From Candidatus Dojkabacteria bacterium (GTDB taxonomy: Bacteria; Patescibacteriota; Dojkabacteria; GCA-002793355), in assembly GCA_015489595.1 (NCBI GenBank), contig WFZK01000008.1:1-53197 (forward strand): a stretch of DNA of 53,197 bases. The letters are read 5' to 3'. Position numbers and translations under genes: made by a program. This document shows, one piece after another, positions 2-51,470 of the stretch; the first letter of the stretch is position 1, and every line of letters begins with the position of its first letter. The notes under the pieces are model-generated. The model searched no databases. It was not told where the DNA came from and was given only the letters and a program-made list of their open reading frames with translations.

Positions 2-535
2 AAGCACTTTATCAGGATAGGACAAAGGAAGTTATACGTATTCGTTGCGATAGATATAAAGACCAGGTTAGCTTTTGCAATGTTTTATGAAAGGATGAGG
101 AGCGGTGATGCTGCGGAGTTTTTAACAAGAGGGATCAAGTTTTTTGGCAGTTTTGGAGAGCTAAAATATATCCAGACAGATAACGGAGGTGAATATGAGA
201 AAGAGTTTGACAAGAAGGTTAAACAGTTAGGGTTAATACATGTGTACAGTGAGGAAGGGAAACCTAAAGAGAACGGATACGTAGAGAGGTTAATACGGAG
301 CATAAATGGAGAGTTTTTGTGCGACTTGCCGGGAGATTTAAGTGTTGATGAGTACAATGCCCATTTGTTGGAGTGGCTTACGTACTATAATACAGAGAGG
401 CCGCATGCTGGATTAAATTACAAGACTCCGGCAGAGGTAGCATATGGAAGCGGGAACCACACTTTGAATATAAATTTGTCTCAACTCTTTTGGATCTATA
501 TACAAATTTGCCAACCTGCCCCAAAAATGTCATAA
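2..535 (+). mobile_element. DDE transposase, integrase-core (rve) domain, 5'-truncated by the window edge (IS481/IS3-like)
   Basis: The frame stays open back to nt 2 (KHFIRIGQRKLYVFVAIDIKTRLAF...). Motifs seen: IQTDNGGEY, GKPKENGYVERLIRS, YYNTERPHAGLNYKTPAEV. Confidence 0.75.
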
Positions 536-6940: not shown

Positions 6941-7095
6941 GGGTCTCACTCAAAAATCGAAAAGGTGAATTTTCGCGTGAGACCTCTAAATTGCTCTTCC
7001 TCCAGCTGCTTTGAATGACCTTACGGTCAGTAGCCCTCACCACCGTGAAAAAAGAACTTACTTTAGGGCGTGGGGCGAAAATTTGCGGGGATGTG
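6939..7095 (+). repeat. mosaic repeat copy (hairpin A 6939-6987, core, degenerate half hairpin B 7066-7092)
   Basis: ggtctcac/gtgagacc stem around aaaaatcga. The core ttgctcttcctccagctgctttgaatga... aligns with 34898-34975. It ends in tttagggcgtggggcgaaaat. Confidence 0.7.
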
Positions 7096-7169
7096 ATAGT
7101 GTTACTTTCCTTTACTGTTGCAAAATTCTTTATGGATGGGTTTGTCGCTTTTGAGACTGGAGAGATTTA

Positions 7170-7223
7170 GCGCATGGACTGAGCGAAAATTTTTTGTGTC
7201 AAATTTTCGCTCAGTCCATGCGC
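7170..7223. repeat. solo hairpin with a 23-bp perfect stem and an 8-nt loop
   Basis: gcgcatggactgagcgaaaattt (7170-7192) pairs perfectly with aaattttcgctcagtccatgcgc (7201-7223). It abuts the -10 box of the next gene. Confidence 0.85.
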
Positions 7224-7226
7224 ATG

Positions 7227-7235
7227 TGTTATACT
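7227..7235 (+). promoter_or_regulatory. extended -10 (TGTTATACT), 5 nt before ATG 7241
   Basis: Sequence reads tgtTATACTtttctATG. Confidence 0.45.
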
Positions 7236-7240
7236 TTTCT

Positions 7241-9691
7241 ATGTGGAACATGCTCTTTTTCACCGTGGTAGGACCAGTAGTAGACACTGCCTATAGTCCT
7301 GAAAGTGGTGGTTTGTCATATGGTTTTGTACTAGGGTTTATTTTGATTGTTTTTCTAGCTCTTTTGGCTGTAATAGCTCTGACATACGTTGTGACCAAAA
7401 GGCTTAAAGAAGAAGATAAGGATAAAAAATCTCTTAAATACGTTATGTATTTGGTGAGGGTTCCTAAAGACAATGAAGTTCAGATAAAAGCGATGGAACA
7501 GTTGTTTTCTAGTTTTTATGGATTTGCTAAAAGTAAGGGATTTCTTGAAAAGTTAACTTCAGCAGAAGAGGGTATCTCCTTTGAGATAATAGGATATCCC
7601 AATTACATAGGATTCTTCGTATACACTCCGAAGAAATATGCGAATTTAGTAGAGAAACAGATTTTAGGAGCCTATCAAGATGCAGAGGTGGTTGAAGCTC
7701 CAGAACCCAATATCTACAAAGAAGGTAGTGTGGTTGCGGCCGCAGAGTTTAGGCTGAGTGATAAACCATACTACCCGATAAAGACCTATGCTGACTATGA
7801 AGACAAAAGCGACCCTCTTACCAATATAGCAGGAGCTTTTGCAAATATGGTAGAAGGAGAAGGAGCAGCCTTGCAGGTATTGATTGTTCCTAGTGACTTG
7901 TCGTGGGCTAAGAAGGGTCAGAAATTGGTGAAAAAGCAGCAGCAGCTTATGAACGATCCGGAGAAGAAGGGTAAGGTTACCTTGTCTCAACAGCAGATGG
8001 ATGCGATCTTAAAAAAGACTTCAAAGGTTGGGTTCAAGGTGTATATTAGAGCGGTAGTCAGCGCTCCTGACGAAGCTTTAGCTAAAAGCAGGCTAGGCTC
8101 TCTGGCTGGAGCGTTCCTGCAGTTTACTAACCCTGGTTTTAATTCATTTAAGATGTACAGAGTAGAGCAGGGCAAGCTCAGAGAATTTATGCGAGATTTT
8201 GTATACAGGAGGGTTCCTGAGTCAAAGCCTTCGATTCTAAATGTTGAAGAGCTGGCCACAATTTATCATTTCCCTAACAAAAATGTCCAGATTCCAGGTA
8301 TAGATTGGTTATTGGCCAAAAAGGCTCCGCCTCCACCGAATCTGCCTACAAGTGGTTTGTGGATAGGCACTTCGATTTACCGTGGTGTTAAAAAACCAGT
8401 ATACATAGGCTCCATCAAAGATAGAATGCGACATATGTATATTATCGGTCAAACAGGTGTAGGAAAGTCATATTTTATGGCCAATATGATTTTGCAGGAT
8501 ATCTATAACGGCATGGGGCTTGCTGTGCTTGATCCGCATGGGAGTCTAGTCGAAGAGGTAGTCTATAGAATTCCCCCAGAAAGGGCAGAGGACGTTATTT
8601 ATTTTAACCCCTCTGATACTGAGCGGCCGTTTGGATTAAATATCTTAGAGCACAGGAACGAATACGAAAAGCACGAGATCGTAAATGGATTCTTAGCTTT
8701 AATGAAAAAGATGTTCGACCCGCATGATCAGGGTATTGTAGGTCCTAGATTCGAGCGTGCAGTGCGAATGGCGATGCTGACGGTGATGGTTGATCCAGAG
8801 AGCACCTTAGTGGAGGTGTTAAGAGCAATAGCAGATGAGCAGTATGCACGTAGCTTTCTGCCACTTATTAAAGATCCTGAGGTTAGACTTTATTATGAGA
8901 AGGAATTAGCGAACACTGATAAGTTCCATAAATCTGAGATATTAGGCTGGATCACCTCAAAATTCGATCGGTTTGTAACTAACCTGATGATACGCAACAT
9001 AATCGGTCAGAGTAAATCGTCGTTCGATGTGCGAAAGGTTATGGATGAGGGTAAGATTCTGCTGGTTAATTTGTCGCAGGGTTTAATAGGCGTGGAGAAT
9101 GCTCAATTTTTAGGTCTGCTTTTAGTCCCTAAGATAATGAGAGCAGCTTTAAGCCGCGAAGATACTCCAGAAGATCAGCGCAGGGACTTCTTCTTGTATG
9201 TAGACGAGTTTCAGAATTTTGCAACCGAAGATTTTGCAAAGATATTGTCTGAGGCTAGAAAGTATCACCTAGGGCTAGTGGTGGCTAATCAGTATATAGC
9301 CCAGATGAATGAGAAGGTAAGAGATGCAGTGTTTGGTAATGTGGGTAATCTGATAGCTTTTCGAGTCGGTGCTACAGATGCTGAGTATCTAGAGAAAGAG
9401 TTTGCTCCTGTTTTTTCTCAGCAAGATTTGATTAAGCTAGAGAATGCAAATGCCTATGTGAAGATGCTTATTAATGGCTTTGCAGCACCACCGTTTTCTA
9501 TGAGTACTTTTTATGATATGAACAAGAGGTATCCTAAGTATCCTAAGGTGGGAGAGCTCATCAAGAAGCTATCCAGAATCAAGTACGGTAGGCCAGTGGA
9601 ACAGGTGAATCAGGATATTGAGCGCAGGGCAAGACGGACTAATGCGAGTGCTCCTACAACTACAGATGCTATGCCGCCGTTGACTTTCTGA
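7241..9691 (+). CDS. membrane-anchored P-loop ATPase, type IV coupling protein-like (VirD4/TraD/TraG family)
   Basis: N-terminal TM FVLGFILIVFLALLAVIALTYVV, Walker A IIGQTGVGKSYFM, LDPHGSL and Walker B FFLYVDEFQNF. The start was moved from 7118 to 7241 because 7118-7240 runs through the hairpin and the promoter. Confidence 0.65.
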   Translation: MWNMLFFTVVGPVVDTAYSPESGGLSYGFVLGFILIVFLALLAVIALTYVVTKRLKEEDKDKKSLKYVMYLVRVPKDNEVQIKAMEQLFSSFYGFAKSKGFLEKLTSAEEGISFEIIGYPNYIGFFVYTPKKYANLVEKQILGAYQDAEVVEAPEPNIYKEGSVVAAAEFRLSDKPYYPIKTYADYEDKSDPLTNIAGAFANMVEGEGAALQVLIVPSDLSWAKKGQKLVKKQQQLMNDPEKKGKVTLSQQQMDAILKKTSKVGFKVYIRAVVSAPDEALAKSRLGSLAGAFLQFTNPGFNSFKMYRVEQGKLREFMRDFVYRRVPESKPSILNVEELATIYHFPNKNVQIPGIDWLLAKKAPPPPNLPTSGLWIGTSIYRGVKKPVYIGSIKDRMRHMYIIGQTGVGKSYFMANMILQDIYNGMGLAVLDPHGSLVEEVVYRIPPERAEDVIYFNPSDTERPFGLNILEHRNEYEKHEIVNGFLALMKKMFDPHDQGIVGPRFERAVRMAMLTVMVDPESTLVEVLRAIADEQYARSFLPLIKDPEVRLYYEKELANTDKFHKSEILGWITSKFDRFVTNLMIRNIIGQSKSSFDVRKVMDEGKILLVNLSQGLIGVENAQFLGLLLVPKIMRAALSREDTPEDQRRDFFLYVDEFQNFATEDFAKILSEARKYHLGLVVANQYIAQMNEKVRDAVFGNVGNLIAFRVGATDAEYLEKEFAPVFSQQDLIKLENANAYVKMLINGFAAPPFSMSTFYDMNKRYPKYPKVGELIKKLSRIKYGRPVEQVNQDIERRARRTNASAPTTTDAMPPLTF

Positions 9692-9744: not shown

Positions 9745-9844
9745 GTTTGACTTGGCTAGATAGCTTGTGTGAGCACCATAGCGATGACTTTTTCTCGGGG
9801 TCTGGGGGCAAAATTGCTCTATGCGATTTTGCCCCCAGACCCCG
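9745..9844 (+). repeat. mosaic repeat copy (core-like segment plus hairpin 9796-9844)
   Basis: cggggtctgggggcaaaat / attttgcccccagaccccg forms a 19-bp perfect stem. The upstream cttggctagatagc...gcgatgacttttt resembles the core at 34905-34965. Confidence 0.7.
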
Positions 9845-9894: not shown

Positions 9895-9966
9895 GGGCGC
9901 GTAGCTCAGCGGTAGAGCGCTGTTCTTATAAAGCAGTGGTCGCAGGTTCGAATCCTGCCGCGCCCA
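9895..9966 (+). tRNA. tRNA-Ile, anticodon UAU (TAT)
   Basis: Cloverleaf folded by hand: acceptor GGGCGCG/CGCGCCC, D arm GCTC-AGCGGTA-GAGC, anticodon arm CTGTT-CTTATAA-AGCAG, variable loop TGGTC, T arm GCAGG-TTCGAAT-CCTGC, discriminator A. CCA is not encoded. Confidence 0.85.
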
Positions 9967-9970
9967 GGTC

Positions 9971-10002
9971 GGCGGCGGGCGGCATAAATGCCGCCCGCCG
10001 CC
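9971..10002. repeat. G/C-only arm hairpin directly after tRNA-Ile (possible terminator)
   Basis: ggcggcgggcggca-taaa-tgccgcccgccgcc forms a 14-bp perfect stem. Only a short TT follows. Confidence 0.7.
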
Positions 10003-11026: not shown

Positions 11027-11194
11027 TGAGGCAAAATGCGCTGCACCTGCTTTTTGCCCCACACCGAAGACATGCTGTCTCTCTTGTGGTATGAAGAGGA
11101 TTCTGGCTAGCGGTATGATTTAAAAGGCCAGAGGGATGACAATCTAGGGATTTTAAGCAACAATCGGCCTTTTGCGATTTTTGCTTAAAGCCCC
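11027..11194 (-). repeat. mosaic repeat copy, inverted orientation (hairpin B' 11027-11064, core, hairpin A' 11147-11194)
   Basis: The reverse complement of the core reads tgtcatccctctggccttttaaatcatacc. The hairpins are gtgaggcaaaa/ttttgccccac and gggattttaagcaa/ttgcttaaagcccc. Confidence 0.75.
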
Positions 11195-13947: not shown

Positions 13948-14163
13948 GGTCTCACGCAGAAATCGATTTTTGCGTAAGTCCCGACTGGGCGTGGGGCAAA
14001 ATGTGGTAATGACACATTTTGCCCCACGCCCAAAGGTAGTTTGTCTTACGTCGGGTAGCGAAAAATAGTCCGTCAACAACGGGGAATTTAGAACAGCCAG
14101 AAGAATGATGAGTTTAGGGTGGCTGTGGCAAAAATCGACTTTTTCGATTTTTGCCACAGCCAC
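13948..14163 (-). repeat. mosaic repeat copy, inverted (extra hairpin 13948-13982, hairpin B' 13987-14031, core, hairpin A' 14119-14163)
   Basis: 19-bp perfect stem gggcgtggggcaaaatgtg/cacattttgccccacgccc and 20-bp perfect stem gtggctgtggcaaaaatcga/tcgatttttgccacagccac. The core is a near-identical reverse complement of 43736-43818. Confidence 0.9.
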
Positions 14164-14192
14164 GACTTGCCCTCGACAGAACCTATACCTAA

Positions 14193-14201
14193 TGGTAAAA
14201 T
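14193..14201 (+). promoter_or_regulatory. extended -10 (TGGTAAAAT), 9 nt upstream of tRNA-Asp
   Basis: Sequence reads tggTAAAATttcacacatGGGGGCG. Confidence 0.4.
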
Positions 14202-14210
14202 TTCACACAT

Positions 14211-14284
14211 GGGGGCGTAGCTCAACTGGTTAGAGCACTCGCCTGTCACGCGAGAGGCTGCGGGTTCGAGTCCCGTCGTCCCCG
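14211..14284 (+). tRNA. tRNA-Asp, anticodon GUC
   Basis: Acceptor GGGGGCG/CGTCCCC, D arm GCTC-AACTGGTTA-GAGC, anticodon arm CTCGC-CTGTCAC-GCGAG, T arm GCGGG-TTCGAGT-CCCGT, discriminator G. Confidence 0.85.
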
Positions 14285-14438
14285 TGGACTGGAGCGGAGA
14301 GTTCCCCAGAAATGTTAAGCTGGGATGTTGACATTAGTTGGAGTTGGAATTCCCCTGTGTTGTTGCTTTGCTGCAGGCTGGTGAGGCCGATGTCGTTGGC
14401 AACGTTGGGGGTTCATGCTAGGGTTATGCCTAACCTAA

Positions 14439-14447
14439 TGCTATAAT
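14439..14447 (+). promoter_or_regulatory. extended -10 (TGCTATAAT), 8 nt before ATG 14456
   Basis: Sequence reads tgcTATAATccttacgcATG. Confidence 0.45.
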
Positions 14448-14455
14448 CCTTACGC

Positions 14456-15952
14456 ATGAGGCGTGGGGCAAAACAAAACGGTTCGCTGAAGAACAAAAGG
14501 GCAGAAAGAAAAAGTAGAGAGAAGAAGCCTGGAGTTAGTCTTTTTAGAGGTAGGACTGCTGGAGTAAGAAATGCACAGGAATTATCTATAACTACCGATG
14601 AGTTTTGGAAAAGACCTAAGGAGTTTTTCCCGTTTTTTTCTAAGAATCCACATCGATTATATATGGATTCTGCTACACAGACTTTGCTTCCTGCTGCAGT
14701 TATTGAGGTTGTAGCCCGTCGGCTGAGCGGGGCGGGGCGGCCGCAGGCCGCCCCGCCCCGCTTTTATTCAACTGTGCTGGATTTTTTCGGCGTGTACGGC
14801 AAAGCCAGATTTTATTTTATGCCTAGCCTTTCGCACGCGCTGTTCTATACGGCTTTTAGCCTTCTGTATGAATCTTTAAAACTACCTACTGCACTGATTA
14901 AGGCTATGTATTCTGCAAAATTAAGTGGGCAGGCCCATTCCGGTTTTTCTGAACTTTCTTATGCTTTTAACGCGGGCCGAGCTGGTTCTTCCGGTGAGGA
15001 TGCTACTAAGGACGCGGCGGTAAAAAAGAATTCTTCTGAGCGAGAGAATCAGCCTTTGGCAGCAGTTAGAGATTCTGCGGAGGGCTTGACTTTTAGTTTT
15101 GGCTCGTCGTCTGTTTCCCCAGCCAGCGCTGCTGATCTTTTAGCTTACGCAAAAGATCTATTAAAAAAAGCTTATGCAGATACAGGTGTGAAAAAGGTCC
15201 ATGTGTTTGCTCAGCAAGGTGCAGATTTTGGGCATTTTAGGCAACTTTGCCACGATTTTAACCTTGAGTATACAGCCTTACCTGCTCCGCTTGATTATGA
15301 GCAAATCGACCGGATGTTAGAGAAAGATGCGTCCGGTCTGAAGATCTTAGTAGTTAACTGGGTTGATAGATACACAGGCAAAATAGCTAATTTAGAAAAA
15401 CTAAGCGAGATAGCCGATAAACGCGATGTAGTTTTTGTTCTAAACGGAGCCTGGGGTGCAGGGATAATTCCTATTGATTTGTCAAAATACAAGATAGACT
15501 TGTTTATCTTTGCTGGCTATAAAATGTACGGACCACCTTCGACTGCAGGGGTTATTGTGACCGATCCACATATAAGATGGCGGGCTCCTCGGTATCTTGA
15601 CGCCGCGAACATTGCGGGGCTTGATGCTGCACTAGATTTTTTGACAACGATTGATAGAGACCGTATCATAAACGAACACATGGATCTTGTGGCCTATACT
15701 ATAGAGAAATTCGAGAAACGAGACGGGATTGAGCCTCTAGGTGGTACTGGTCTAGATAGAGCAGGAATATTTACATTCTCCGTTGATGACATCTCATCTT
15801 TTAAGGAGCTTGTGAAGCTTAATCAGTTAGATCTTAGAATAGAGTCTAAGAAGTCAAGAGTAAGGCTAAGTTTTGGGGTTTACAGCACAAGAGACGATGT
15901 AGACGAAGCGTTCTCTGTAATAGATGATTATCTTTCTAAGTTTGGTTTCTAA
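14456..15952 (+). CDS. class-V aminotransferase / cysteine desulfurase-like protein, highly divergent with a large insert
   Basis: LYMDSATQTLLPAAV (like YLDxAAT) and FAGYKMYGPPSTAGVIV (like SGHKxxGPxGxG, with the Lys retained and His replaced by Tyr). Roughly aa 90-235 is low-complexity or unalignable. Confidence 0.55.
   Translation: MRRGAKQNGSLKNKRAERKSREKKPGVSLFRGRTAGVRNAQELSITTDEFWKRPKEFFPFFSKNPHRLYMDSATQTLLPAAVIEVVARRLSGAGRPQAAPPRFYSTVLDFFGVYGKARFYFMPSLSHALFYTAFSLLYESLKLPTALIKAMYSAKLSGQAHSGFSELSYAFNAGRAGSSGEDATKDAAVKKNSSERENQPLAAVRDSAEGLTFSFGSSSVSPASAADLLAYAKDLLKKAYADTGVKKVHVFAQQGADFGHFRQLCHDFNLEYTALPAPLDYEQIDRMLEKDASGLKILVVNWVDRYTGKIANLEKLSEIADKRDVVFVLNGAWGAGIIPIDLSKYKIDLFIFAGYKMYGPPSTAGVIVTDPHIRWRAPRYLDAANIAGLDAALDFLTTIDRDRIINEHMDLVAYTIEKFEKRDGIEPLGGTGLDRAGIFTFSVDDISSFKELVKLNQLDLRIESKKSRVRLSFGVYSTRDDVDEAFSVIDDYLSKFGF
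14727..14761. repeat. G/C-rich palindrome (16-bp stem, 3-nt loop) inside the CDS, in frame
   Basis: gcggggcggggcggcc-gca-ggccgccccgccccgc encodes SGAGRPQAAPPR. Confidence 0.9.
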
Positions 15953-17761: not shown

Positions 17762-17784
17762 ACAGCAAGACATAAGAGACTGTG

Positions 17785-17817
17785 GGATGGGGGCAAAATG
17801 GGATTTTGCCCCCATCC
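17785..17817. repeat. solo hairpin (B-type) 24 nt after the murJ stop
   Basis: ggatgggggcaaaat-ggg-attttgcccccatcc forms a 15-bp perfect stem. Confidence 0.8.
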
Positions 17818-17960
17818 TAGGATAGAAGTTGCGACCAAAATAGTTTTGTGATGGCAAAAGAAGGTGTAGATGAGATAAAGAAAGCCGAGGATAAAATCCA
17901 CAGATTTGACCAAATTTGGGGATTGCATTCCACGAATTTGACTGAATTTGTGGAACTTAT

Positions 17961-17971: not shown

Positions 17972-19135
17972 ATGGGAAACAGGGGAATAGTGCTAGAAAC
18001 AGAGGAATTTATTCCGCGCCTAATTTATGATCAGGTGGCGGACAAATTAAAGCCTAATCAGGTGGTAGTAATCTACGGAGCAAGGCAAGTAGGGAAAACC
18101 ACTCTTATTAACAAGCTAATAAGCAAGATTAAAAGAAAGTACCTCTTTGTCAACGCTGATTTTTCATCAGAGCGTGAGTGGCTTTCTTCCTTGAATTTGG
18201 AGGTGTATAAAAGATATCTAACAGGGGTAGAATTGTTGGTTATAGATGAGGCGCAGCGGGTAGAGAATATTGGTCTGGCACTAAAAATTATAGTGGACAA
18301 CATTCCTAGCATAAGAGTACTAGTTTCTGGCTCTTCGAGTTTAGAGTTGGCGAACAAAATAAGTGAGCCTCTCACAGGAAGAAAGTATGTGTTTAAGCTT
18401 TATCCTATGGCCGTCAAAGAATTAGAGACCGTGTATGCGAAAAACAGGTTAGTATCTATCCTAGAGGAACTTTTAATTTACGGTCAATATCCAAAGATCT
18501 TCAAGTTAGCTTCTAAGAGTGAAAAAGAGGATTATCTTTTTGAGGTGGCTGAATCGTATCTTTTCAAGGATGTGCTCAACCTAACGAATATCCGCAAGTC
18601 GAGCACTCTTTATAGGCTTTTGCAGTTGCTGGCTTATCAGATAGGATCAGAGGTTTCTGCCAGTAAGTTAAGTAATAGTCTGGATCTAGATAAAAAGACG
18701 GTATTAAAGTACCTTGATTTATTAGAACAGACCTTCGTGATACATTCTTTACCAGCTTTTTCAAGGAATAAAAGAAAGGAGGTAAGTAAATCTCGGAAGT
18801 ATTACTTTTGGGACCTTGGCATAAGGAATGCTTTAATCAAAGACTTTAGATCATTAGATCTTAGAAATGATGTAGGAGGTATATGGGAGAATTTTATCGT
18901 TAATGAGCGTATTAAGTTAGCAGAGTACTTAAATCTCCGAAAAGATTTTTACTTTTGGAGAACATACTGGGGAAGCGAGATCGATTTGGTAGAACAGAGT
19001 GTTTCTGAGTTGATAGGGTTTGAGATTAAATTTGGGACAAAAAGGGTAAAACCTCCTAAGATGTGGACTAACCTTTACCCCCAGGCCAAGTTTTATCTGA
19101 TTAATAAGGAAAATTGGATAGATTGGGTGGGGTAG
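17972..19135 (+). CDS. AAA+ ATPase with a C-terminal PD-(D/E)xK-like domain (DUF4143-type)
   Basis: Walker A VIYGARQVGKTTL, Walker B LLVIDEAQ, and C-terminal SEIDLVEQ...GFEIKFG. It is a paralog of 27419-28678. Confidence 0.7.
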   Translation: MGNRGIVLETEEFIPRLIYDQVADKLKPNQVVVIYGARQVGKTTLINKLISKIKRKYLFVNADFSSEREWLSSLNLEVYKRYLTGVELLVIDEAQRVENIGLALKIIVDNIPSIRVLVSGSSSLELANKISEPLTGRKYVFKLYPMAVKELETVYAKNRLVSILEELLIYGQYPKIFKLASKSEKEDYLFEVAESYLFKDVLNLTNIRKSSTLYRLLQLLAYQIGSEVSASKLSNSLDLDKKTVLKYLDLLEQTFVIHSLPAFSRNKRKEVSKSRKYYFWDLGIRNALIKDFRSLDLRNDVGGIWENFIVNERIKLAEYLNLRKDFYFWRTYWGSEIDLVEQSVSELIGFEIKFGTKRVKPPKMWTNLYPQAKFYLINKENWIDWVG

Positions 19136-20324: not shown

Positions 20325-20472
20325 TTGCATTTTGTCCTCGTCAGGTATCGGCCAGGTTTTTCTATATTAGTAGTAGATCGTTTGCCAGCAGGATAGTTTA
20401 AAACAACCATAGGGATGAGGAATTAAGAGGGCTTGGGCTAAAATCGTAAAAAGTCGATTTTGGCCCAAGCCC
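20325..20472 (-). repeat. mosaic repeat copy, inverted (core plus hairpin A' 20429-20472)
   Basis: 18-bp stem gggcttgggctaaaatcg/cgattttggcccaagccc. The reverse complement of the core reads ttcctcatccctatggttgttttaaactatcc. Confidence 0.75.
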
Positions 20473-20508
20473 TGTCCCCTTCCCATTGATTTTTTCCCCC
20501 ATCTTAGT

Positions 20509-27411: not shown

Positions 27412-27418
27412 AATCTTG

Positions 27419-28678
27419 ATGCCAGGTGTGGACACATTAATACTGCAAAACCCATGGTGGAAGACCTCACGTGTTCCTGAGGTGTTTTTGGGTAGAAGGA
27501 GAAAAGAATTCTATCGTAAGATACAGAAGTTTTTACCTCTCAGGCAGATCCTTTTAATCTATGGGCTAAGAAGAACAGGAAAAACAACTTTTTTATATCA
27601 GCTTATTCAGGATTTCTTAAATAGTGGTGTGGATCCGCGTCATATCTTGTATTTTTCGTTTGATGAAAAAGTGCTTAATTTAAAACAGCTTCTAAATACC
27701 TATGAGACTTATATTTTAAAACAGCCGATCACCGAAGAATCTAGAATCTACATGTTCCTAGATGAAATACAAAAGTTATCAGATTGGCAAGATCAGGTCA
27801 AACTCATCTATGATAGATTTCCTAAGATAAAGATATTTTTGTCTGGCTCAGCGTCTGTTAATCTTCAGAGAAATGTACGCGAGAGTTTAGCAGGTAGGGT
27901 ATTTGAGTTTGAGTTTCCTCCTTTAAGCTTTGGGGAATTTTTGGAATGGAAAAAAGCTAAAGTTGGAGATCTGCATAAGAAAGAGTTAAAGCTCCTGGCC
28001 CGTGAGTATGTGTTAAAAGGAGGGTTCCCGGAGATTATAGGTGAGCAAAGCAGCGAGGTCATTCGTATGTATCTTAAAAGTTCAGTACTTTATAAAATCT
28101 TGGAACAAGACTTACCTGCTGTATTTGGTTTGCGAGATCCTGAATTTTTAAAGGCTCTTGTTGAGTACCTTTTCTCCCAGCCCGGTAGCATTATAAATTA
28201 TGATTCTTTAAGCTCCCATTTCGGGCGAAGTAAGGTAACCGTGATTAATTATGTGTTTTATTTAAAGTATGCGTTACTAGTCCGTGAGGTTAGAAATTTT
28301 AGACCCAATTTGCTTCTTGCCTCTAGAAAAGGAAGGAAACTTTACCCTTACAATCCTGCTTTTTGTTTTGTCTATATTCCGGAGGACCAGTTTTTTAAGA
28401 GAGCTTTAGAAACAGCAGTGGCTTATGCGCTTTCGGCAAGGTACTATTACAGGAATCGTTTCGAGGTAGACTTCGTTTTAAGAAAACAGAATAGGCTTTA
28501 TCCGGTAGAGGTAAAAGCAGGTGAGCCTGATGTTAGCCAGGTAGCGAAGTTTTTGAAAAAGTTCGGAGGTAGTAAAGGTTATGTAGTGACAGAAGACTAT
28601 GAAGAGGTTTGGGGAAACATAGAGATTCTGCCTCTTTGGAAGGTGATGTTAGAAGGGGTGGGGGCGGAATTTGTTTAA
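27419..28678 (+). CDS. AAA+ ATPase with a C-terminal PD-(D/E)xK-like domain (DUF4143-type), paralog of 17972-19135
   Basis: Walker A LIYGLRRTGKTTFL, Walker B MFLDEIQ, and C-terminal FEVDFVLR...YPVEVKAG. Confidence 0.7.
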   Translation: MPGVDTLILQNPWWKTSRVPEVFLGRRRKEFYRKIQKFLPLRQILLIYGLRRTGKTTFLYQLIQDFLNSGVDPRHILYFSFDEKVLNLKQLLNTYETYILKQPITEESRIYMFLDEIQKLSDWQDQVKLIYDRFPKIKIFLSGSASVNLQRNVRESLAGRVFEFEFPPLSFGEFLEWKKAKVGDLHKKELKLLAREYVLKGGFPEIIGEQSSEVIRMYLKSSVLYKILEQDLPAVFGLRDPEFLKALVEYLFSQPGSIINYDSLSSHFGRSKVTVINYVFYLKYALLVREVRNFRPNLLLASRKGRKLYPYNPAFCFVYIPEDQFFKRALETAVAYALSARYYYRNRFEVDFVLRKQNRLYPVEVKAGEPDVSQVAKFLKKFGGSKGYVVTEDYEEVWGNIEILPLWKVMLEGVGAEFV

Positions 28679-28700
28679 ACAAATTCCGCCCCCACCCCTT
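28653..28700. repeat. 48-nt perfect palindrome centred on the ATPase stop codon
   Basis: aaggggtgggggcggaatttgttt|aaacaaattccgcccccacccctt. The TAA stop at 28676-28678 spans the centre. Confidence 0.9.
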
Positions 28701-28744
28701 AAAATAGGTTCTCTGGGCGGTTGTGGAGGCTCTATGAGGGACTT

Positions 28745-29137
28745 TTACTTGTCTTTGTGTCCTACTGTCAGCAACTTAAGCCACATTTTGTATGGTGGAG
28801 GTGGAGACGGTGTCGGTGTAGGTGTTGTGTTGGGCAGCTGCTGTGTAAAGATTACGAGCTTCTCTCCGGGTTTGTAATAATTTAAGCTATTGCGCAGCTG
28901 TTGTTCTAGATAAAACGGCGATGTGACGTAATCTAGCTCATTCTGTTTTTTGATGATTTGGACATATTGCTTCTGAAGCTGTTTAAAACGCGGGCGATAA
29001 AGGCTTATCATGTAAAGGGAGGCTTTAATGCTTTTGTATGAATTGTAAATAAGTATGCTTGAGACGATTAGGAGTAGTAGCGTGGTTATAATGTTCTGGA
29101 AGCTGGGCTTGGTTTTAGGCTTTCTGGGCAAGACCAT
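28745..29137 (-). CDS. septum formation initiator family protein (FtsB/DivIC-like) with a P/T-rich tail
   Basis: N-terminal TM TTLLLLIVSSILIY, a coiled-coil segment, YLEQQLRNSLNYYKPGEKLVIF, and the tail TPTPTPSPPPP. Confidence 0.55.
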   Translation of the reverse strand: MVLPRKPKTKPSFQNIITTLLLLIVSSILIYNSYKSIKASLYMISLYRPRFKQLQKQYVQIIKKQNELDYVTSPFYLEQQLRNSLNYYKPGEKLVIFTQQLPNTTPTPTPSPPPPYKMWLKLLTVGHKDK

Positions 29138-32100
29138 AGGATTTTAGTTTTTCAAGTAACGTAAAGAGGGCATCAGGATAGTTGGCTTTGTCCATCTGGG
29201 TTTCTAGCCATGCCGTAAAATCGACTGAGATAAGGTCAGGGTAGTGTTTTTCAAGATAACTAAAAGTGGTTATGCCTTTTTTGGTTGGTATTAGTCTGCC
29301 TTTTCTGTCAATTATGTATCCACGCGTAAGGAGGGTTTTTATAATTATGGCATAGGTTGAAGGTCTGCCTAGGCCTAGCTCTTGCATCTTCTCGATTATT
29401 TGTGCGTATGTGTATGGTTTGTAACGAGGCTTGTAGTTTAGGCTCGCTGGGGCTTTAATTGTCTTTTGGTCGTTAAGGGCTGTGATCGGTTTGGGTTTAA
29501 GATATCCTATGGCGTAGAACCCTGGATCTATCACTTCTACTGTGACTTCGTCTTCGGCAAGTTTCTGGTTATTGTAATAGACTTGAATTTTTGCTTTTTT
29601 TATCTTTGCTTTTTGAGCTTGGGAGGTGATAAATCTTTGAAGAATTAGATTGTACAATTTAATGTGTTGGGAGCTTAACGGTAGTTCGTGGCTAAGCAGA
29701 GGTTTTGTAGGACGGATGCACTCGTGGGTGCCTGGAGTGCCGAAGGGGCGGGGCGCGGCGCGCGCGCCGCGCCCCGCCAGCTTAATAAGCTGGATGGCAA
29801 GGTTACGGCCCGCTTTGGACACGTACGTAGAATCGGTTCGGTGGTATGTGATGTAGCCTTGTTCGAATAGATCTTGGGCAAGCTCCATCGTTTTAGAGGA
29901 GGGGAACCTCAGTCTTCTAAATGCCTCCTTTAAAAGCTCGGCTGTGCTAAACGGCGGGGGTGGAGCTTGCTCCTTTTGGCTTACTCCTACAACTTTAATC
30001 TCTACTTCTTTTATAGGTTCGTTGGGGTTATCTTCAAGCCAGTATTGTAAGATTTGATCTTGTAGCTTAATCTCAAGTTGAGGATACTTCTGCTTTGTTT
30101 GTTCGAAACGCTGTATTATTAAACCTAGAACCGGGGTTTGCACACGACCGGCCGAAAGATTTTTCTCTTTGAACTGTTCCTGAAGTTTTTCGCTTAGAGC
30201 AAAGCCTACCCAACGGTCAGCTATTCGTCTGGTTAATTGCCCTGCAACTTTGGTTGTATCCGTATCGCGCAGGTTTTGGAGCTGTTTTAGGAACTCTGAT
30301 GGAGTTATCTCGTGCAGCTCCATGCGCTTTACATTTGGGTTAAGAGGGTGAAGATAAAGCTTAAGATCGTAGGCTATTTTTTCACCTTCAGTATCAGGAT
30401 CTGTGGTTATATAAACAGAATCAGTATAGTATGCTAAAAGCCTTAGCTCGTCGATTATGTCCTTCTTGGTTAGGAAGCGTTTGCTTCCACATATAGGACA
30501 CACGGTGGTTTCTGTATCTACTTTTCTGCCGCACTTTGCACACATTTTGATTGGACAGAACCAAGGGATAAGTTCGGGTTTAAGAAGGGTGCCGTAATAA
30601 CCAGGGTTGTGTTTAAGATCAGTTATATGGCCTGCTGAAGCGGTGATGATAAAAGTTTTGTTGCCTAAGCTGGCCTCGTAGGCATAAATGTTACCGTACT
30701 GTTTCTTTGCAGGTTTTGAGAAGAATCCCGCGAGAGTTTTTGCTTTGGTCGGAGACTCCACGATCACTAGAACTGTTTCTACTAGGTCAGGTAGATGTTT
30801 AGCTTTGGTCTGTTTTTTTAGTTTTTCTCTTTCTTTTAAGATTTTTTCAAGTATATTGTTAAGCTTCTCTTCAGATAGAGTGCTCATATCTTTAAACTCT
30901 GCGGCAAGGCCCGTTTTTCTAAGGTGTTCAAGCAGCAAGGATATAGGTTTTTCAGATGTGTCGATGATGCAGGAGAGTCCTAGGGTCAGACCGAATGGGC
31001 TTAGCCTGCTTGTCCTGCCTGATGCTTGGATGTATGTTTTTGTGTCTGGGATAAGTGCAAATCTTCTCTGGTCTTTCTTTACGCAAGGGAAAGGAAAGGT
31101 TGGTAAGGTGCAGTCTGTCTGTTTGAGCAGTGTGCTGATAAGGTCCGCTACTGGTTCTATCTTTTTGCGAAGCGTTGGGTTATTCTCTACAAATGTTTTA
31201 GAGAGATTAAGGTATGGTTCTAATTGTTTTCTTAGCTTAAGATAATCTTTAAGTGCTAAAACTCGAGCGCGGGTCAGTACTGAGGCTAGAAACAGGAGCC
31301 TTTTAGGCGAGAGGGTTACTTCAAGGGGTACTCTTAAGATAGGCGTTCCGACAAAAACAGCGTGCTTTATAACTTCTGGAAGGTTTACCCCTCTAACGAG
31401 TGGATTTTTGGGATTAGCTTTAGTTACCACTGCTGCATATTCTCCGTTTTCGAACTGTTCTAGTTTGTTTTCGAACTCATCATAGGTTAATACTGCGATG
31501 TTGTTGGTTTTAAGGACCTCTACGGTTTTATCAAAATCATACGGTTCAGATACGAATACAATTGTTCCTGAGTTAAGTTTTTTTACAATTCTGGCCGTTT
31601 CTTTATAGGGGTCCTGAGTGATCTTGTATAGGTCGATAATGTTGCGCAGAGTGGTGTTGGTTGATCCTAGCTCAAAGTTAAGTAGCTCTCTAAATAGCTT
31701 GATTTTGTTGGTTTTAGGGACAAAGGTCGCTGATGCTGAGATTATTTGGGTGTTTTTTCTCTTGATCTTTCTTTTTAGCTTTTCTGCTAGATCAAATTTA
31801 CCGTAAGCTTTAAGCTTAATTATCTTTTTGGCAAGATCAATATCATCGATAGAGAAACCAGCTAGCATTAAAACTTTTTCTATATTTGAAGCCTGTCTTA
31901 AAAGGGAGTCAGCATCGTCAATAAAGATAAATTGGAAATCACGCGGTAGCTTGTCAAAATTTTTGTGCATAAAGGCGGTGGTTGTGACTAGAATGTCTAT
32001 GTTTTCGGGGTGGTTAAGTAGAGCTTGTTTGTCTTGTTTTGTGAGAACTCCTAGGATCTTTTTACCTACGCGGTTGTACTTAGTTAGCCTTTCAGCCACC

Positions 32101-32495
32101 TGTTTTACCAATACCCTGGTGGGTACTATGTAGTATGTTTTTCTGATGGTAAAGAGGCTGTAGAGGATACCGAAGGTGGTTTTGCCAAGTCCGGTTGGAG
32201 CAAGGATAGCAAAGCTTTCATGGTTCAGGGCCCTTTTGACCCAATATTTAAGGAGTCTGAAAGGCTCCGCTTTTAGGGCGTCTTTAGCAAACTTTATGAA
32301 GTGATCTAGTCTCACTTCGAGTTCGCATATGTCATGTGTGGCGGGGATTGTTTGGCATAGATGCTTTTTTAATAACTCTGAGTATGAAAGTTCGTGTTTG
32401 TTGCAGGCCCCTTTTTCTAAGATCTCAGTGTTTTCCGCGGCTGAGCCGCAGACGGGACAGAGAAGATCGTAAAGGATTTTAGGCTCAGGTTGCAT
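29115..32495 (-). CDS. rgy: reverse gyrase (helicase-like domain fused to type IA topoisomerase)
   Basis: N-terminal Zn finger CPVCG...C. Helicase motifs are I (LAPTGLGKTTFG), II (FIDDADS) and VI (QASGRTSR). Toprim motif is VIVESPTKAKTL. There is an internal Zn ribbon (CAKCG...CPICG), the topo IA active site GYITYHRTDSTYVS, and THECIRPT. Length is 1126 aa. Confidence 0.9.
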   Translation of the reverse strand: MQPEPKILYDLLCPVCGSAAENTEILEKGACNKHELSYSELLKKHLCQTIPATHDICELEVRLDHFIKFAKDALKAEPFRLLKYWVKRALNHESFAILAPTGLGKTTFGILYSLFTIRKTYYIVPTRVLVKQVAERLTKYNRVGKKILGVLTKQDKQALLNHPENIDILVTTTAFMHKNFDKLPRDFQFIFIDDADSLLRQASNIEKVLMLAGFSIDDIDLAKKIIKLKAYGKFDLAEKLKRKIKRKNTQIISASATFVPKTNKIKLFRELLNFELGSTNTTLRNIIDLYKITQDPYKETARIVKKLNSGTIVFVSEPYDFDKTVEVLKTNNIAVLTYDEFENKLEQFENGEYAAVVTKANPKNPLVRGVNLPEVIKHAVFVGTPILRVPLEVTLSPKRLLFLASVLTRARVLALKDYLKLRKQLEPYLNLSKTFVENNPTLRKKIEPVADLISTLLKQTDCTLPTFPFPCVKKDQRRFALIPDTKTYIQASGRTSRLSPFGLTLGLSCIIDTSEKPISLLLEHLRKTGLAAEFKDMSTLSEEKLNNILEKILKEREKLKKQTKAKHLPDLVETVLVIVESPTKAKTLAGFFSKPAKKQYGNIYAYEASLGNKTFIITASAGHITDLKHNPGYYGTLLKPELIPWFCPIKMCAKCGRKVDTETTVCPICGSKRFLTKKDIIDELRLLAYYTDSVYITTDPDTEGEKIAYDLKLYLHPLNPNVKRMELHEITPSEFLKQLQNLRDTDTTKVAGQLTRRIADRWVGFALSEKLQEQFKEKNLSAGRVQTPVLGLIIQRFEQTKQKYPQLEIKLQDQILQYWLEDNPNEPIKEVEIKVVGVSQKEQAPPPPFSTAELLKEAFRRLRFPSSKTMELAQDLFEQGYITYHRTDSTYVSKAGRNLAIQLIKLAGRGARAAPRPFGTPGTHECIRPTKPLLSHELPLSSQHIKLYNLILQRFITSQAQKAKIKKAKIQVYYNNQKLAEDEVTVEVIDPGFYAIGYLKPKPITALNDQKTIKAPASLNYKPRYKPYTYAQIIEKMQELGLGRPSTYAIIIKTLLTRGYIIDRKGRLIPTKKGITTFSYLEKHYPDLISVDFTAWLETQMDKANYPDALFTLLEKLKSYGLAQKA
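29747..29778. repeat. 32-nt perfect G/C-only palindrome inside rgy, in frame
   Basis: ggcggggcgcggcgcg|cgcgccgcgccccgcc encodes AGRGARAAPRP just upstream of the conserved THECIRPT motif. Confidence 0.9.
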
Positions 32496-32535: not shown

Positions 32536-32674
32536 GGCCTTTAGCGAAAATCGGTTTTTGCTAAAGGCCATGGATTACCATCACTCTGGCCGTTTTAAAT
32601 TATCTATTTGGCAGGTGATCTCCTACGACGGGGGCGGGGGGAAAATCGACTTTTTTGATTTTCGCCCCGCCCCC
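32536..32674 (+). repeat. mosaic repeat copy (hairpin A 32536-32569, short core, G-rich hairpin 32629-32674)
   Basis: ggcctttagcgaaaa/ttttgctaaaggcc, the core ccatcactctggccgttttaaattatc, and gggggcgggggggaaaatcga/tgattttcgccccgccccc. Confidence 0.8.
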
Positions 32675-33967: not shown

Positions 33968-34846
33968 ATGCAGGAATACATCAATAAGTTTATTGACTAT
34001 TTAAAGCAGCAGGGCAAGAGTCAATACACCATCGTAGCCTATCGAAATGATCTTGGACAGTTAGTTAGATACCTTAAGGAGCAGAAAGACAAGCATGATG
34101 TCCAAAAAATTACGTTACAAGATCTTAAGGACTTTATAGAGTATCTAAAGACCGAGAAAGGTTTTAACTTAAAAACAATCTCTAGGAAGATAAATAGTAT
34201 AAGGAGCTTTTTTAAATATCTTGCCTCTACCGGGGTAATCGATGAGGTGTCTAATCCGGCTTTAAGGCTTGTTCATCCTAAGGTGGAGCCTTCTCCTCCT
34301 AGAGTCTTGTCTCAACTTGAGTATAGAGCTCTAAGAGATGCTAGCAGAAAAGATCCCAGGCTTTATGCCATTGTAGAGGTCTTACTCCAGACAGGTTTAA
34401 GGCTGGGAGAGCTACACAGATTAAAGGTTTCAGATATAAGGTATACCTCGAGTGGTAAACCTTATCTTTATATAGAAGCTTATGGGACCCATCCAGCACG
34501 AAAGGTGCCTTTAAATCAAGCGGCGTATGAAGCCTTAAAAACTTATATAGAGAAGTACAGGCCTGAACCTCAGCCTGGTGTAGAGAACATCTTTATTACC
34601 AAAACTGGCCGCCCTATTCCAATGAGAAATATCAGAGCTATGATAAAACGCGCCTTTAAGGCAGCTGGTATTAAGAAGGCTACAGTAAATGATATCAGGA
34701 ATACGTTTATTGTTTATCACCTGGCCCGCGGTATGAATCCCTTGACATTGGCAAAGATCGTGGGCCACAGGAGAATTTCTACAACCGAGAAATATTTAGC
34801 TTTCGTTAAATCTAAACCAGAGAAGACCGGCCTGCAGGAACTGTAG
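33968..34846 (+). CDS. tyrosine recombinase, XerC/XerD family
   Basis: An N-terminal SAM-like domain (SQYTIVAYRNDLGQLVRYL), LLQTGLRLGEL and GHRRISTTEKYL, in a 292-aa protein. Confidence 0.8.
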   Translation: MQEYINKFIDYLKQQGKSQYTIVAYRNDLGQLVRYLKEQKDKHDVQKITLQDLKDFIEYLKTEKGFNLKTISRKINSIRSFFKYLASTGVIDEVSNPALRLVHPKVEPSPPRVLSQLEYRALRDASRKDPRLYAIVEVLLQTGLRLGELHRLKVSDIRYTSSGKPYLYIEAYGTHPARKVPLNQAAYEALKTYIEKYRPEPQPGVENIFITKTGRPIPMRNIRAMIKRAFKAAGIKKATVNDIRNTFIVYHLARGMNPLTLAKIVGHRRISTTEKYLAFVKSKPEKTGLQEL

Positions 34847-34874: not shown

Positions 34875-35020
34875 TTGGCCTTGCTTAAAGCCCCTTTAAA
34901 TTACTCTTCTCTTGGCTGCTTTGGATGATCCTGTGGATAGGCAACTTCGTTACGCTATGAAAAAAGAGCCCATTTCGGGCGTGGGGCAAAATGCGGGACC
35001 GCCGCATTTTGCCCCACGCC
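34875..35020 (+). repeat. mosaic repeat copy (right arm of hairpin A, core, hairpin B 34976-35020)
   Basis: ttgcttaaagcccc, then the core ctcttctcttggctgctttggatgatcctgtgg, then the 20-bp perfect stem gggcgtggggcaaaatgcgg/ccgcattttgccccacgccc. Confidence 0.85.
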
Positions 35021-35032
35021 CTTTATCTTTCT

Positions 35033-40055: not shown

Positions 40056-40228
40056 GGGGCGTTAAGCGAAAATCGAAGAAAGTCGATTTTCGCTTAAGAC
40101 CCCGCGAATTGTTATTCTTATGGCTATTTTAAATCTTGATGTTGAGAGCGCCATTTCGATACCGTGGGTAAGGCAACCTACTTAAGGGGGTGAGGTAAAA
40201 CGTGATGCTAACATAGTTTGCCTCACTC
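40056..40228 (+). repeat. mosaic repeat copy (hairpin A 40056-40103, core, hairpin B 40188-40228)
   Basis: ggggcgttaagcgaaaatcga/tcgattttcgcttaagacccc. The core attgttattcttatggctattttaaatcttgatgttg...gtaaggcaacctactta aligns with 43736-43818. Confidence 0.85.
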
Positions 40229-42479: not shown

Positions 42480-42620
42480 GTCAATTTTGCCCGTCTTGTG
42501 GAGCATGTTATTTTTATACTAGTTGGAGGATCTACCAGTGGATGATTCCAAACAGGGGGCGTGGCAACTTTCTAGAGGCATGGGCAAGAATCGACTTTTT
42601 ACGATTCTTGCCCATGCCTC
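42480..42620 (-). repeat. mosaic repeat copy, inverted (degenerate B', core, hairpin A' 42575-42620)
   Basis: 19-bp perfect stem gaggcatgggcaagaatcg/cgattcttgcccatgcctc. It ends exactly at the response regulator stop (42621). Confidence 0.75.
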
Positions 42621-43646
42621 TCACACCCACTCTTTCCCACACTTAAGACAAACAAGTCGGGCGTTGTATTCTGAGATAAGTTTACCTGTTTGCGGATTTT
42701 TCTGCTTTACGGGGATTAGCTTAAGTCCAATAGGCCCTCCGCAGAGAGGACATTTACCTGTCCGAACCTCTGGAGGTGCGGTTTTTAAAAGCTGCCTGAC
42801 TTCTGGTGCCTGAAGGTTAAGGGGAATAACATATACAGATGGTTGAGATTCAGACAGGATCATCTCTTTTATCTTTTCAACCACCTGCAGCAGTGTAGTA
42901 TCAGCCTTGATCAGAAACATATCTGCTCCCATCTCGTAGGCTTTTTGAATGTCTTCAGGGGCTCCCAGGTTACTTAAAATTATTATCTTAGGCCTGTAGG
43001 TAGATGTGTATTCTCTGAGGGCTTTAAGAGCCGCCCAACCGTCCATCTCTGGCATTAAGATATCCAGCAGAATAATCTGTGGTCTTTCTTTGATAGCTTT
43101 GACTATTCCCTCTTCACCATTTGAGGCTGTGATTACATTAAAGCCAAACTTCTTAAGTACGAATTCGTATTGATATCTAACATCACTGTTGTCTTCTATG
43201 ATTAAAACTTTATACTTTGCTAGTCTTGGATCTTTAATGCTTTGAGGTTGTACATCTGGGATTCCGCTTGGATCATCTTCCCAATGTGGCTCTGATTGAG
43301 GCGCGGGTTGAGCTGTTGGCTCTGGGACTGTGGTAGCAAGTCCTGGTTCTGGAGCAGGTTGAGACAGTGTGGGTTGTTGAGGGGCAGATGGAGTTATTTG
43401 GTTGTTAGGTTGTGTAGTATTGGCTTGGGGTGGAGTATTTGGTTGGGGTAGATTCTGAGTTTGTGGGGTTGCTGAAGGGGGTGAAGTAGGTGAAGTTACA
43501 GTAGAAGCAGGGGGCGCTGTAGTTTGGGCAGTGTTTTGAGGTGATGTGCTAGAAGGTGCTTGATTTTGAGTAAAGGATGCTAGAGGATCTTGGTTTGTGT
43601 CTTCAGGCGGAATGTTTCCACTTAAACCTGGTGGTATTTGGCCCAT
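42621..43646 (-). CDS. response regulator: P/T/Q-rich N-terminal region, receiver domain and C-terminal zinc ribbon
   Basis: KVLIIEDNSDVRYQYEFVLKKFGFNV...ILLDILMPEMDGW, and C-terminal CPLCGG...CLKCG. Confidence 0.8.
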   Translation of the reverse strand: MGQIPPGLSGNIPPEDTNQDPLASFTQNQAPSSTSPQNTAQTTAPPASTVTSPTSPPSATPQTQNLPQPNTPPQANTTQPNNQITPSAPQQPTLSQPAPEPGLATTVPEPTAQPAPQSEPHWEDDPSGIPDVQPQSIKDPRLAKYKVLIIEDNSDVRYQYEFVLKKFGFNVITASNGEEGIVKAIKERPQIILLDILMPEMDGWAALKALREYTSTYRPKIIILSNLGAPEDIQKAYEMGADMFLIKADTTLLQVVEKIKEMILSESQPSVYVIPLNLQAPEVRQLLKTAPPEVRTGKCPLCGGPIGLKLIPVKQKNPQTGKLISEYNARLVCLKCGKEWV

Positions 43647-43684: not shown

Positions 43685-43862
43685 TAGGGGGCTCACGCAA
43701 AAATTGAAAAAATCAATTTTTGCGTGAGCCCCCTAAACTTATCATCCTTCTGGCTGTTCTAAATTTCCCGTTGTTGGCGAATGATTTTTCGCTACCCCGC
43801 GTAAGGCAGGCTACTTTAGGGCGTGGGGAGAATATGGTATTGACACATTTTGCCCCACGCCC
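43685..43862 (+). repeat. mosaic repeat, best-preserved copy (hairpin A 43685-43735, core 43736-43818, hairpin B 43819-43862)
   Basis: 23-bp perfect stem tagggggctcacgcaaaaattga/tcaatttttgcgtgagcccccta. The core holds atccttctggctgttctaaat. Hairpin B is gggcgtgggg...ccccacgccc. Confidence 0.9.
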
Positions 43863-51310: not shown

Positions 51311-51311
51311 G

Positions 51312-51470
51312 GGCGGGGGCAAAAATCGGCTTTCCCGATTTTTGCCCCCGCCTCTTCTCAAAAGTATCCTTCCTCCGGTCGTTTTAAATCATCCTTTTGT
51401 AGGCAATCTCCCTTTACTACAGGGAATAGGGCTCTTTTGGGGTTTAAGGCAAAATATGGAGATATAACAT
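51312..51470 (+). repeat. mosaic repeat copy (hairpin A 51312-51352 starting 2 nt after the gatB stop, core, degenerate hairpin B)
   Basis: 18-bp perfect stem ggcgggggcaaaaatcgg/ccgatttttgcccccgcc. The core holds atccttcctccggtcgttttaaatcatcc. Confidence 0.8.

Follow-up and report, generated by a model that had tools for sequence, protein, structure and literature searches.

GC-rich palindromes in genomes of lower GC content are familiar from yeast mitochondria, in which GC clusters form sequence classes, are mobile, have characteristic target sites, and are polymorphic for presence or absence, adding residues where they occur. Rickettsia, too, has palindromic DNA that can form hairpins and is translated in frame; its elements measure ~100–150 bp, occur as sequence families numbering tens of copies, code for a conserved peptide, and lengthen the host protein (PMC10969869). 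In the mitochondria of Nematomorpha, coding palindromes leave the gene length unchanged and are either perfect or absent, and conversion between the arms has been proposed (PMC6649704). Shorter inverted repeats within genes, with arms of 10–16 bp and spacers of 2–5 nt, include template-switch repeats in yeast coding sequences (PMC8604942) and conserved repeats in proteobacteria (PMC5941160); between close lineages, their arms are homogenized and the spacer is exactly inverted, with one or two amino acids replaced. Repetitive extragenic palindromic (REP) sequences and bacterial interspersed mosaic elements (BIMEs) are extragenic and multi-copy, bear GTAG or CGTC tags, and are linked to REP-associated tyrosine transposases (RAYTs) (PMC3733652). 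Here, we examined a palindrome, designated c1, in a gene for a SufS-like protein on contig WFZK01000008.1 of Candidatus Dojkabacteria, a member of the candidate phyla radiation (CPR); “the window” denotes the whole 53,197-nt stretch that was analyzed. Like three further palindromes of the same organism (c2–c4), c1 probably arose in place and was kept perfect by copying between its arms.

Direct reading and a repeat search gave c1 as AGCGGGGCGGGGCGGCC-GCA-GGCCGCCCCGCCCCGCT, a perfect 37-nt hairpin of almost only G and C with a 17-bp stem and a 3-nt loop; the original prediction had recognized the perfect stem but gave its length as 16 bp. The palindrome lies within the open reading frame of the SufS-like gene, with position 14726 in frame, and occupies codons 91–102 of 498. 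Its codons (AGC GGG GCG GGG CGG CCG CAG GCC GCC CCG CCC CGC) yield SGAGRPQAAPPR, bearing out the predicted in-frame translation, and its composition allows no stop codon in any frame, as had also been pointed out. The RNA fold was −45.2 kcal/mol, and 0 of 200 shuffled sequences folded equally well. The description of the surroundings as locally AT-rich was overstated, because the GC content is 48% over positions 14001–15000 and 43% over the whole window. The motif GGGGCGGGGCG occurs exactly at 14729(+), 14749(−), 29745(+), and 32663(−), and when one mismatch was allowed, there were 7 matches against 0.37 expected. The predicted kinship of c1 with the palindromes in the reverse gyrase gene and behind tRNA-Ile was confirmed, the former sharing the arm motif; the G-rich arm style is also common to the intergenic hairpins of the window, one of which contains GGGGCGGGGCG. 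The window held three GC-rich perfect hairpins with a stem of at least 8 bp (c1, c2, and c3), compared with 0.03 in composition-matched Markov simulations, in which the longest stem was 8 bp. The c1 sequence was identical in an independent NCBI assembly (L001), and one Logan contig at normal depth spanned c1 with both flanks.

At least four GC-only perfect palindromes, three coding and one behind tRNA-Ile, were found in ~57 kb of this genome (coordinates within the window are given in Table 1). Palindrome c2 lies in the reverse gyrase gene and codes for (L)AGRGARAAPRP; its two 16-nt arms meet without a loop. Palindrome c3 is noncoding, with 15-bp arms and an AA loop, and begins 5 nt past the 3′ end of tRNA-Ile(UAU). 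Palindrome c4 (CGAGGCGGCGCGCGTACGCGCGCCGCCTCG; 30 nt, perfect) was located on an ENA scaffold of the same organism (L052) that reaches 3.5 kb past the window, and it supplies the codons for LPRRRAYARRLA close to the beginning of a PF08713-related, AlkD-like gene. The four palindromes are 28–37 nt long, with stems of 13–17 bp and folds of −35 to −45 kcal/mol. All four sequences are different, as are the three peptides. The coding palindromes sit at about codons 23, 91, and 906 of their host genes, that is, at no common position, and the palindromes occupy three different codon phases, as derived by hand from the coordinates. No decayed GC-rich palindromes were found in the window, so the pattern is all or nothing. 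Meanwhile, the 47 kb around the reverse gyrase gene of two Parcubacteria genomes (L054 and L055; 23% GC) contained no GC-rich hairpins, which indicates that reverse gyrase in a CPR genome does not generally go along with such palindromes and that they are peculiar to the window's lineage.

The original prediction regarded c1 as an in-frame insertion, by analogy with the Rickettsia elements, and expected an alignment with orthologs to show that ~12 residues had been inserted. The protein alignments did not support this view: homologues without a palindrome have equivalent residues at these sites, clearly in reverse gyrase and the AlkD-like protein and weakly in the SufS-like protein, which is the outcome that the original prediction had itself named as refuting an insertion. 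In reverse gyrase, there was no gap at c2 in 57 aligned sequences (56 homologues), and the length between the invariant anchors YHRTDS and HECIRPT was unchanged, also relative to PDB 1GL9. Opposite the c2 peptide, the homologues had unremarkable residues (QNKEEISYLRS, for example), and the c2 peptide preserves the conserved Arg that precedes [WF]G. The c4 peptide aligned column for column and without a gap with LPQRRKEGQRIA in an AlkD-like alignment of 7 sequences; these homologues are ~40% identical, and their DNA is non-palindromic there, with AT-rich codons. Because LPQRRKEGQRIA occupies the same columns and is encoded by non-palindromic codons, c4 appears to have overwritten a conserved Arg-rich motif by substitution. 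For c1, the remote SufS alignments, which are weak, passed through the segment with a length difference of at most 2 residues (SGAGRPQAAPPR vs SNN--HAAVGRG). Searches of 5.8 billion proteins and of 1.8 billion representatives returned no orthologue of the c1 host gene, so the comparison for c1 is limited to these remote hits and to the contigs of relatives described below. No close relative was found among species-representative genomes queried with the host protein and with reverse gyrase. On these sequence comparisons, c1 probably overlies codons that already existed, without any insertion.

Relatives of the window organism were found in four other vent metagenomes (X4–X7), where they are seen as short assembled contigs. 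In X4 and X7, the contigs spanned the c1 site with no indel and 0 changes in the 34 arm nucleotides, whereas outside c1, they differed at 52 of 300 positions in X4 (17%) and at 10 of 123 in X7 (8%), which corresponds, from the counts, to P values of about 0.002 and 0.06, respectively. The 30 nt just upstream of c1 carried 7–8 differences in the relatives, several of them non-synonymous. In both X4 and X7, the c1 loop had changed from GCA to TGC, its exact reverse complement, replacing Q with A. In X4, c2 was present and c3 was unchanged; in X6, the c3 loop had changed from AA to TT, and one arm pair had changed from G:C to G.T. Palindrome c4 was identical at every nucleotide in three orthologues, the third codon positions of which were otherwise 44% identical. 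All 11 palindrome codons were identical (11/11), whereas codons for the same residue were identical in 57% of cases nearby and in 39% elsewhere in the gene, and the longest run of identity in the AlkD-like gene, 46 nt, covered c4. An intergenic hairpin after an ABC gene also had its loop inverted between L052 and the contig of a relative, L057 (ATTTTTC vs GAAAAAG). Because k was 31 and an arm plus its loop is at most 20 nt, words joining flank and loop should fix the orientation, and the loop inversions are therefore unlikely to be assembly ambiguities.

It is probable, in our view, that the palindromes originated where they now lie and that template switching from arm to arm keeps them perfect. 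Such copying is proposed because unchanged arms together with an exact loop inversion constitute the signature of template switching described in PMC8604942. At the loci studied here, perfect in-frame arms occurred without a change in length, the loop was exactly inverted in c1 and c3, and the arms of c1 and c4 were more conserved than their surroundings. A palindrome of this type would start from GC-rich Arg, Gly, Ala, and Pro codons, and the repeat would then be extended and kept self-complementary by template switching or by hairpin-directed repair between the two arms. Copying from arm to arm would homogenize the arms and occasionally flip the loop. Only very GC-rich stems may be stable enough at the growth temperature to pair within one strand, and GC-biased correction of arm mismatches may drive the arms to pure G/C. 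The palindromes can survive in genes because codons made only of G and C specify Gly, Ala, Arg, and Pro and never a stop, and because the segments affected are tolerant or Arg-rich; they may have no dedicated function.

The inverted c1 loop, with its replacement of Q by A, resembles the template-switch repeats of yeast and proteobacteria. However, those repeats have an ordinary composition and are mostly young, strain-level features, whereas the palindromes described here are GC-only, extremely stable, and conserved across largely diverged synonymous sites. Like the Nematomorpha repeats, they are perfect, lie in protein genes with both arms translated, cover residues that homologues also have, and are all or nothing. 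They differ from the Nematomorpha repeats in that they occur in a bacterial genome, measure 28–37 nt rather than up to 284 bp, and have pure G/C arms in a 43% GC genome with the G-rich arm on the 5′ side; moreover, one copy is noncoding and lies behind a tRNA, and the loop inversion was directly seen. Arms made only of G and C, high stability, a fixed polarity, conservation between diverged lineages, and a thermophilic CPR host appear to be new for bacteria.

Several points weigh against template switching in place. It accounts neither for pure G/C arms in a 43% GC genome nor for the position of the G-rich arm on the 5′ side in 20 of 21 hairpins, and purifying selection for a hairpin function would conserve the arms just as well. 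The homologue alignment at c1 is weak, and the host gene has no orthologue outside the relatives. Furthermore, the relatives are known as assembled contigs, which hide the loop orientation within populations, and the sample is small, comprising four palindromes in ~57 kb of genome plus the short contigs of relatives. A broader proposal, which we put forward tentatively, is that a lineage-specific process in thermophilic Patescibacteria builds and perpetuates GC-only hairpins over codons and behind tRNAs. This process could be a GC-biased arm-conversion drive acting only on heat-stable stems, or it could be the selection of heat-proof DNA or RNA punctuation that has the 5′-G-rich polarity of the intergenic family.

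It is rather unlikely, although still credible, that each hairpin is a selected heat-stable element, either in RNA (for intragenic termination or attenuation, for processing, or to stop 3′ exonucleases) or in DNA (a cruciform or hairpin recognized by a protein). Purifying selection on the structure would then keep the arms, and template switching is compatible with this as a repair route. The arms are indeed conserved far beyond the flanks in the relatives, and the sole arm change seen, that of c3 in X6, still pairs in RNA. However, the arms are perfect Watson–Crick helices instead of showing the G-U-tolerant pattern typical of selected RNA helices, and no compensatory changes were seen. Directly after c1 lies a T-rich tail (TTTATTC), which together with the last T of the stem reads TTTTATT, so that c1 looks like an intrinsic terminator. 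Nevertheless, a simple terminator scan of the window did not list c1; c2 and c4 have no T-tract, and the tail of c3 is weak. As GC-rich stem–loops, one of which follows closely on the 3′ end of a tRNA, the palindromes resemble intrinsic terminators, but c1, c2, and c4 lie inside reading frames, where they share no common position, and stems of 13–17 bp fall in the upper part of the length range for terminators. Strong termination within the reverse gyrase gene would also come at a cost. Another bacterium has a bona fide terminator with exactly the c1 core: on a contig of this high-GC bacterium (L022, 409–437; JGI Ga0256832_1028222), the c1 30-mer is followed by TTTTTT, forming a canonical hairpin-plus-T-tract terminator after a multihaem cytochrome gene. 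An Rfam search of the window returned four tRNAs only and no family at the palindromes. The selected-element explanation is further favored by the 5′-G-rich polarity, which is common to ~17 intergenic hairpins just after stop codons, and by the fold energies, with which the hairpins should hold at high temperature.

The 30-mer of the high-GC bacterium was found on Logan contigs in X1 (the run of the source metagenome), X4, X6, and X7. Its occurrence in both organisms of the same vent communities is curious and probably reflects convergence.

Much less probable is descent of the palindromes from a small, GC-rich mobile element of the Rickettsia or yeast GC-cluster type, copies of which would have inserted in frame before later deletions or selection restored the protein length. 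A GC composition foreign to the genome, the absence of stops in all frames, and common short motifs (GGGGCGGGGCG in c1 and c2; GCGGCGCGCG in c2 and c4) would suit such an element, but shared 10–11-mers are weak evidence in a two-letter, G-biased alphabet. In reverse gyrase, 11 residues that all 56 aligned homologues have are missing ~20 residues downstream of c2 (PLLSHEL-----PLSSQH), and this deletion could be read as a restoration of length. In contrast, the two well-aligned sites show no gain in length, conserved residues are kept inside the palindrome peptide, each palindrome is unique in sequence, and c2 and c3 are each single-copy in X1. No target-site duplications were visible in the flanks of c1–c4, and no IS200/RAYT-type gene (Y1-transposase domain) was found among the scanned proteins of the window. 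The check for presence/absence variation that the original prediction had proposed, run on the relatives, revealed no empty sites; every relative seen had the palindrome at the orthologous site.

A second copy of the c1 30-mer in X1 was rejected as evidence of a repeat family because its flanks matched the high-GC bacterium (64% GC). The c1 29-mer occurs in dozens of unrelated high-GC genomes and metagenomes, and pattern scans returned only unrelated contigs of 55–75% GC, where it is a common terminator stem. The identity can be attributed to convergence among GC-rich terminator stems, and scans of genome and metagenome collections with the c1 core were uninformative with regard to mobility.

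The palindromes are like the Rickettsia elements in being hairpin-forming DNA that is translated in frame without stops in normal bacterial genes. They are unlike them in being 28–37 nt long, each unique, without added length, and present at the same site in relatives. Membership in that group was rejected after a sequence family, added residues, the characteristic size and conserved peptide, and empty sites had all been tested for and not found. The same holds for the yeast GC clusters, which are likewise short GC-rich palindromes in a lower-GC genome and are occasionally coding (var1): a search for sequence classes, for variation in presence or absence, and for added residues found none of them, and no target-site duplication was visible. 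REP sequences are also short palindromic repeats, but c1–c4 are unique and untagged, three of the four are in genes, and no RAYT gene was found among the scanned proteins of the window; the intergenic hairpin family of the window, with its AAAATCG core, is genuinely REP-like. Finally, chance or an assembly or library artefact is effectively refuted: although de Bruijn graphs break at palindromes and there are indeed Logan contigs that stop at c1 and c2, the hairpins far exceed the simulated number, c1 is identical in an independent assembly and spanned with its flanks by a single contig, and the palindromes were recovered from four other metagenomes in diverged relatives.

These findings imply that foreign-looking GC-rich hairpins within genes are not necessarily selfish insertions; such a hairpin can overwrite codons and stay perfect via the replication and repair machinery. 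If the pattern extends genome-wide, thermophilic CPR bacteria would provide a parallel, among bacteria, to the coding palindromes of mitochondria. As a natural system, they would also allow study of the influence of template switching, and possibly of GC-biased correction, on proteins, of how far the sequence of protein loops can yield to nucleic-acid constraint, and of whether extremely stable hairpins play a role in gene expression at high temperature. For annotation, this means that DNA structure can give rise, as a by-product, to segments rich in Ala, Gly, Arg, or Pro in genomes of this kind.

The SufS-like host protein of c1 contains just one Cys, and the catalytic Cys loop is absent; judged from its sequence, it is probably not a cysteine desulfurase. 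It also has ~90 extra low-complexity residues at roughly 150–240. In addition to reverse gyrase, the closest homologues of which are ~43% identical and come from Parcubacteria/Patescibacteria, the window encodes ordinary bacterial housekeeping genes, and the source is a hydrothermal-vent metagenome; together, these features indicate a thermophilic CPR bacterium with 43% GC. Over almost the entire 53 kb, the GC skew takes strongly positive values (about +0.1 to +0.3), including in the 29–32 kb region with long genes on the minus strand, which suggests a single replication arm with strong strand asymmetry. A tRNA-Ile(UAU) is an uncommon bacterial way of reading AUA, and the joint 9966→10142 is probably a tRNA-related cross-match.

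Table 1. Positions of the palindromes, their host genes, and other features in the window
Feature	Position	Strand	Remark
c1	14726–14762		arms 14726–14742 and 14746–14762; loop 14743–14745
T-rich tail of c1	14763–14769	+	directly 3′ of c1
SufS-like gene	14456–15952	+	498 aa; class-V aminotransferase fold, very divergent; Pfam PF00266 at 4.5e-19; PDB SufS hits
c2	29745–29778		perfect over 29747–29778; coding on the minus strand
Reverse gyrase gene	29115–32495	−	host of c2; PDB 1GL9 at 3e-175
c3	9971–10002		noncoding
tRNA-Ile (anticodon TAT)	9895–9966	+	immediately upstream of c3
Intergenic hairpins	6942–6984, 7170–7223, 9796–9844, 11152–11189, 13948–14032, 14119–14163, 17783–17819, 20426–20475
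Further intergenic hairpins	28649–28704, 32536–32674, 34977–35021, 40056–40103, 42574–42621, 43685–43735, 51309–51355
Integrase-core (rve_3) fragment	80–532		contig start
VirD4/TraG-like coupling protein	7118–9688
XerC/D-like recombinase	33968–34846		adjoins tRNA-Met
AAA_14/DUF4143 ATPase paralogues (two)	17972–19135 and 27416–28678

Intergenic hairpins, at least 17 in number, have perfect stems of 18–25 bp composed of a G-rich variable outer arm, a conserved inner core, (C/G)AAAAT(C/T)G...C(A/G)ATTTT, and a C-rich arm. Most of them closely follow a stop codon or precede a tRNA. Several of these hairpins are linked to one another by Logan contigs, indicating that the family is multi-copy. In appearance they are REP-like or terminator-like, but with A/T tracts inside the stem. 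A scan with the intergenic core (GGCAAAAATCG..CGATTTTTGCC) returned 42 loci from many phyla but no relatives, and was set aside as a generic hairpin background. In the hairpin at 51309–51355, the C-run at 51350 differs by 2 nt between assemblies. One intergenic hairpin of L052 lacks its left arm in the relative (L057), which has a ~150-nt deletion. Over positions 13150–15260 of L052, identity to L057 is mosaic: the ABC transporter gene is ~95% identical at its 3′ end, and the gene that follows is 83% identical in its first 180 nt, visibly more diverged thereafter, and 66% identical as a whole. This mosaic is possibly a recombination tract that ends ~30 nt after c4.

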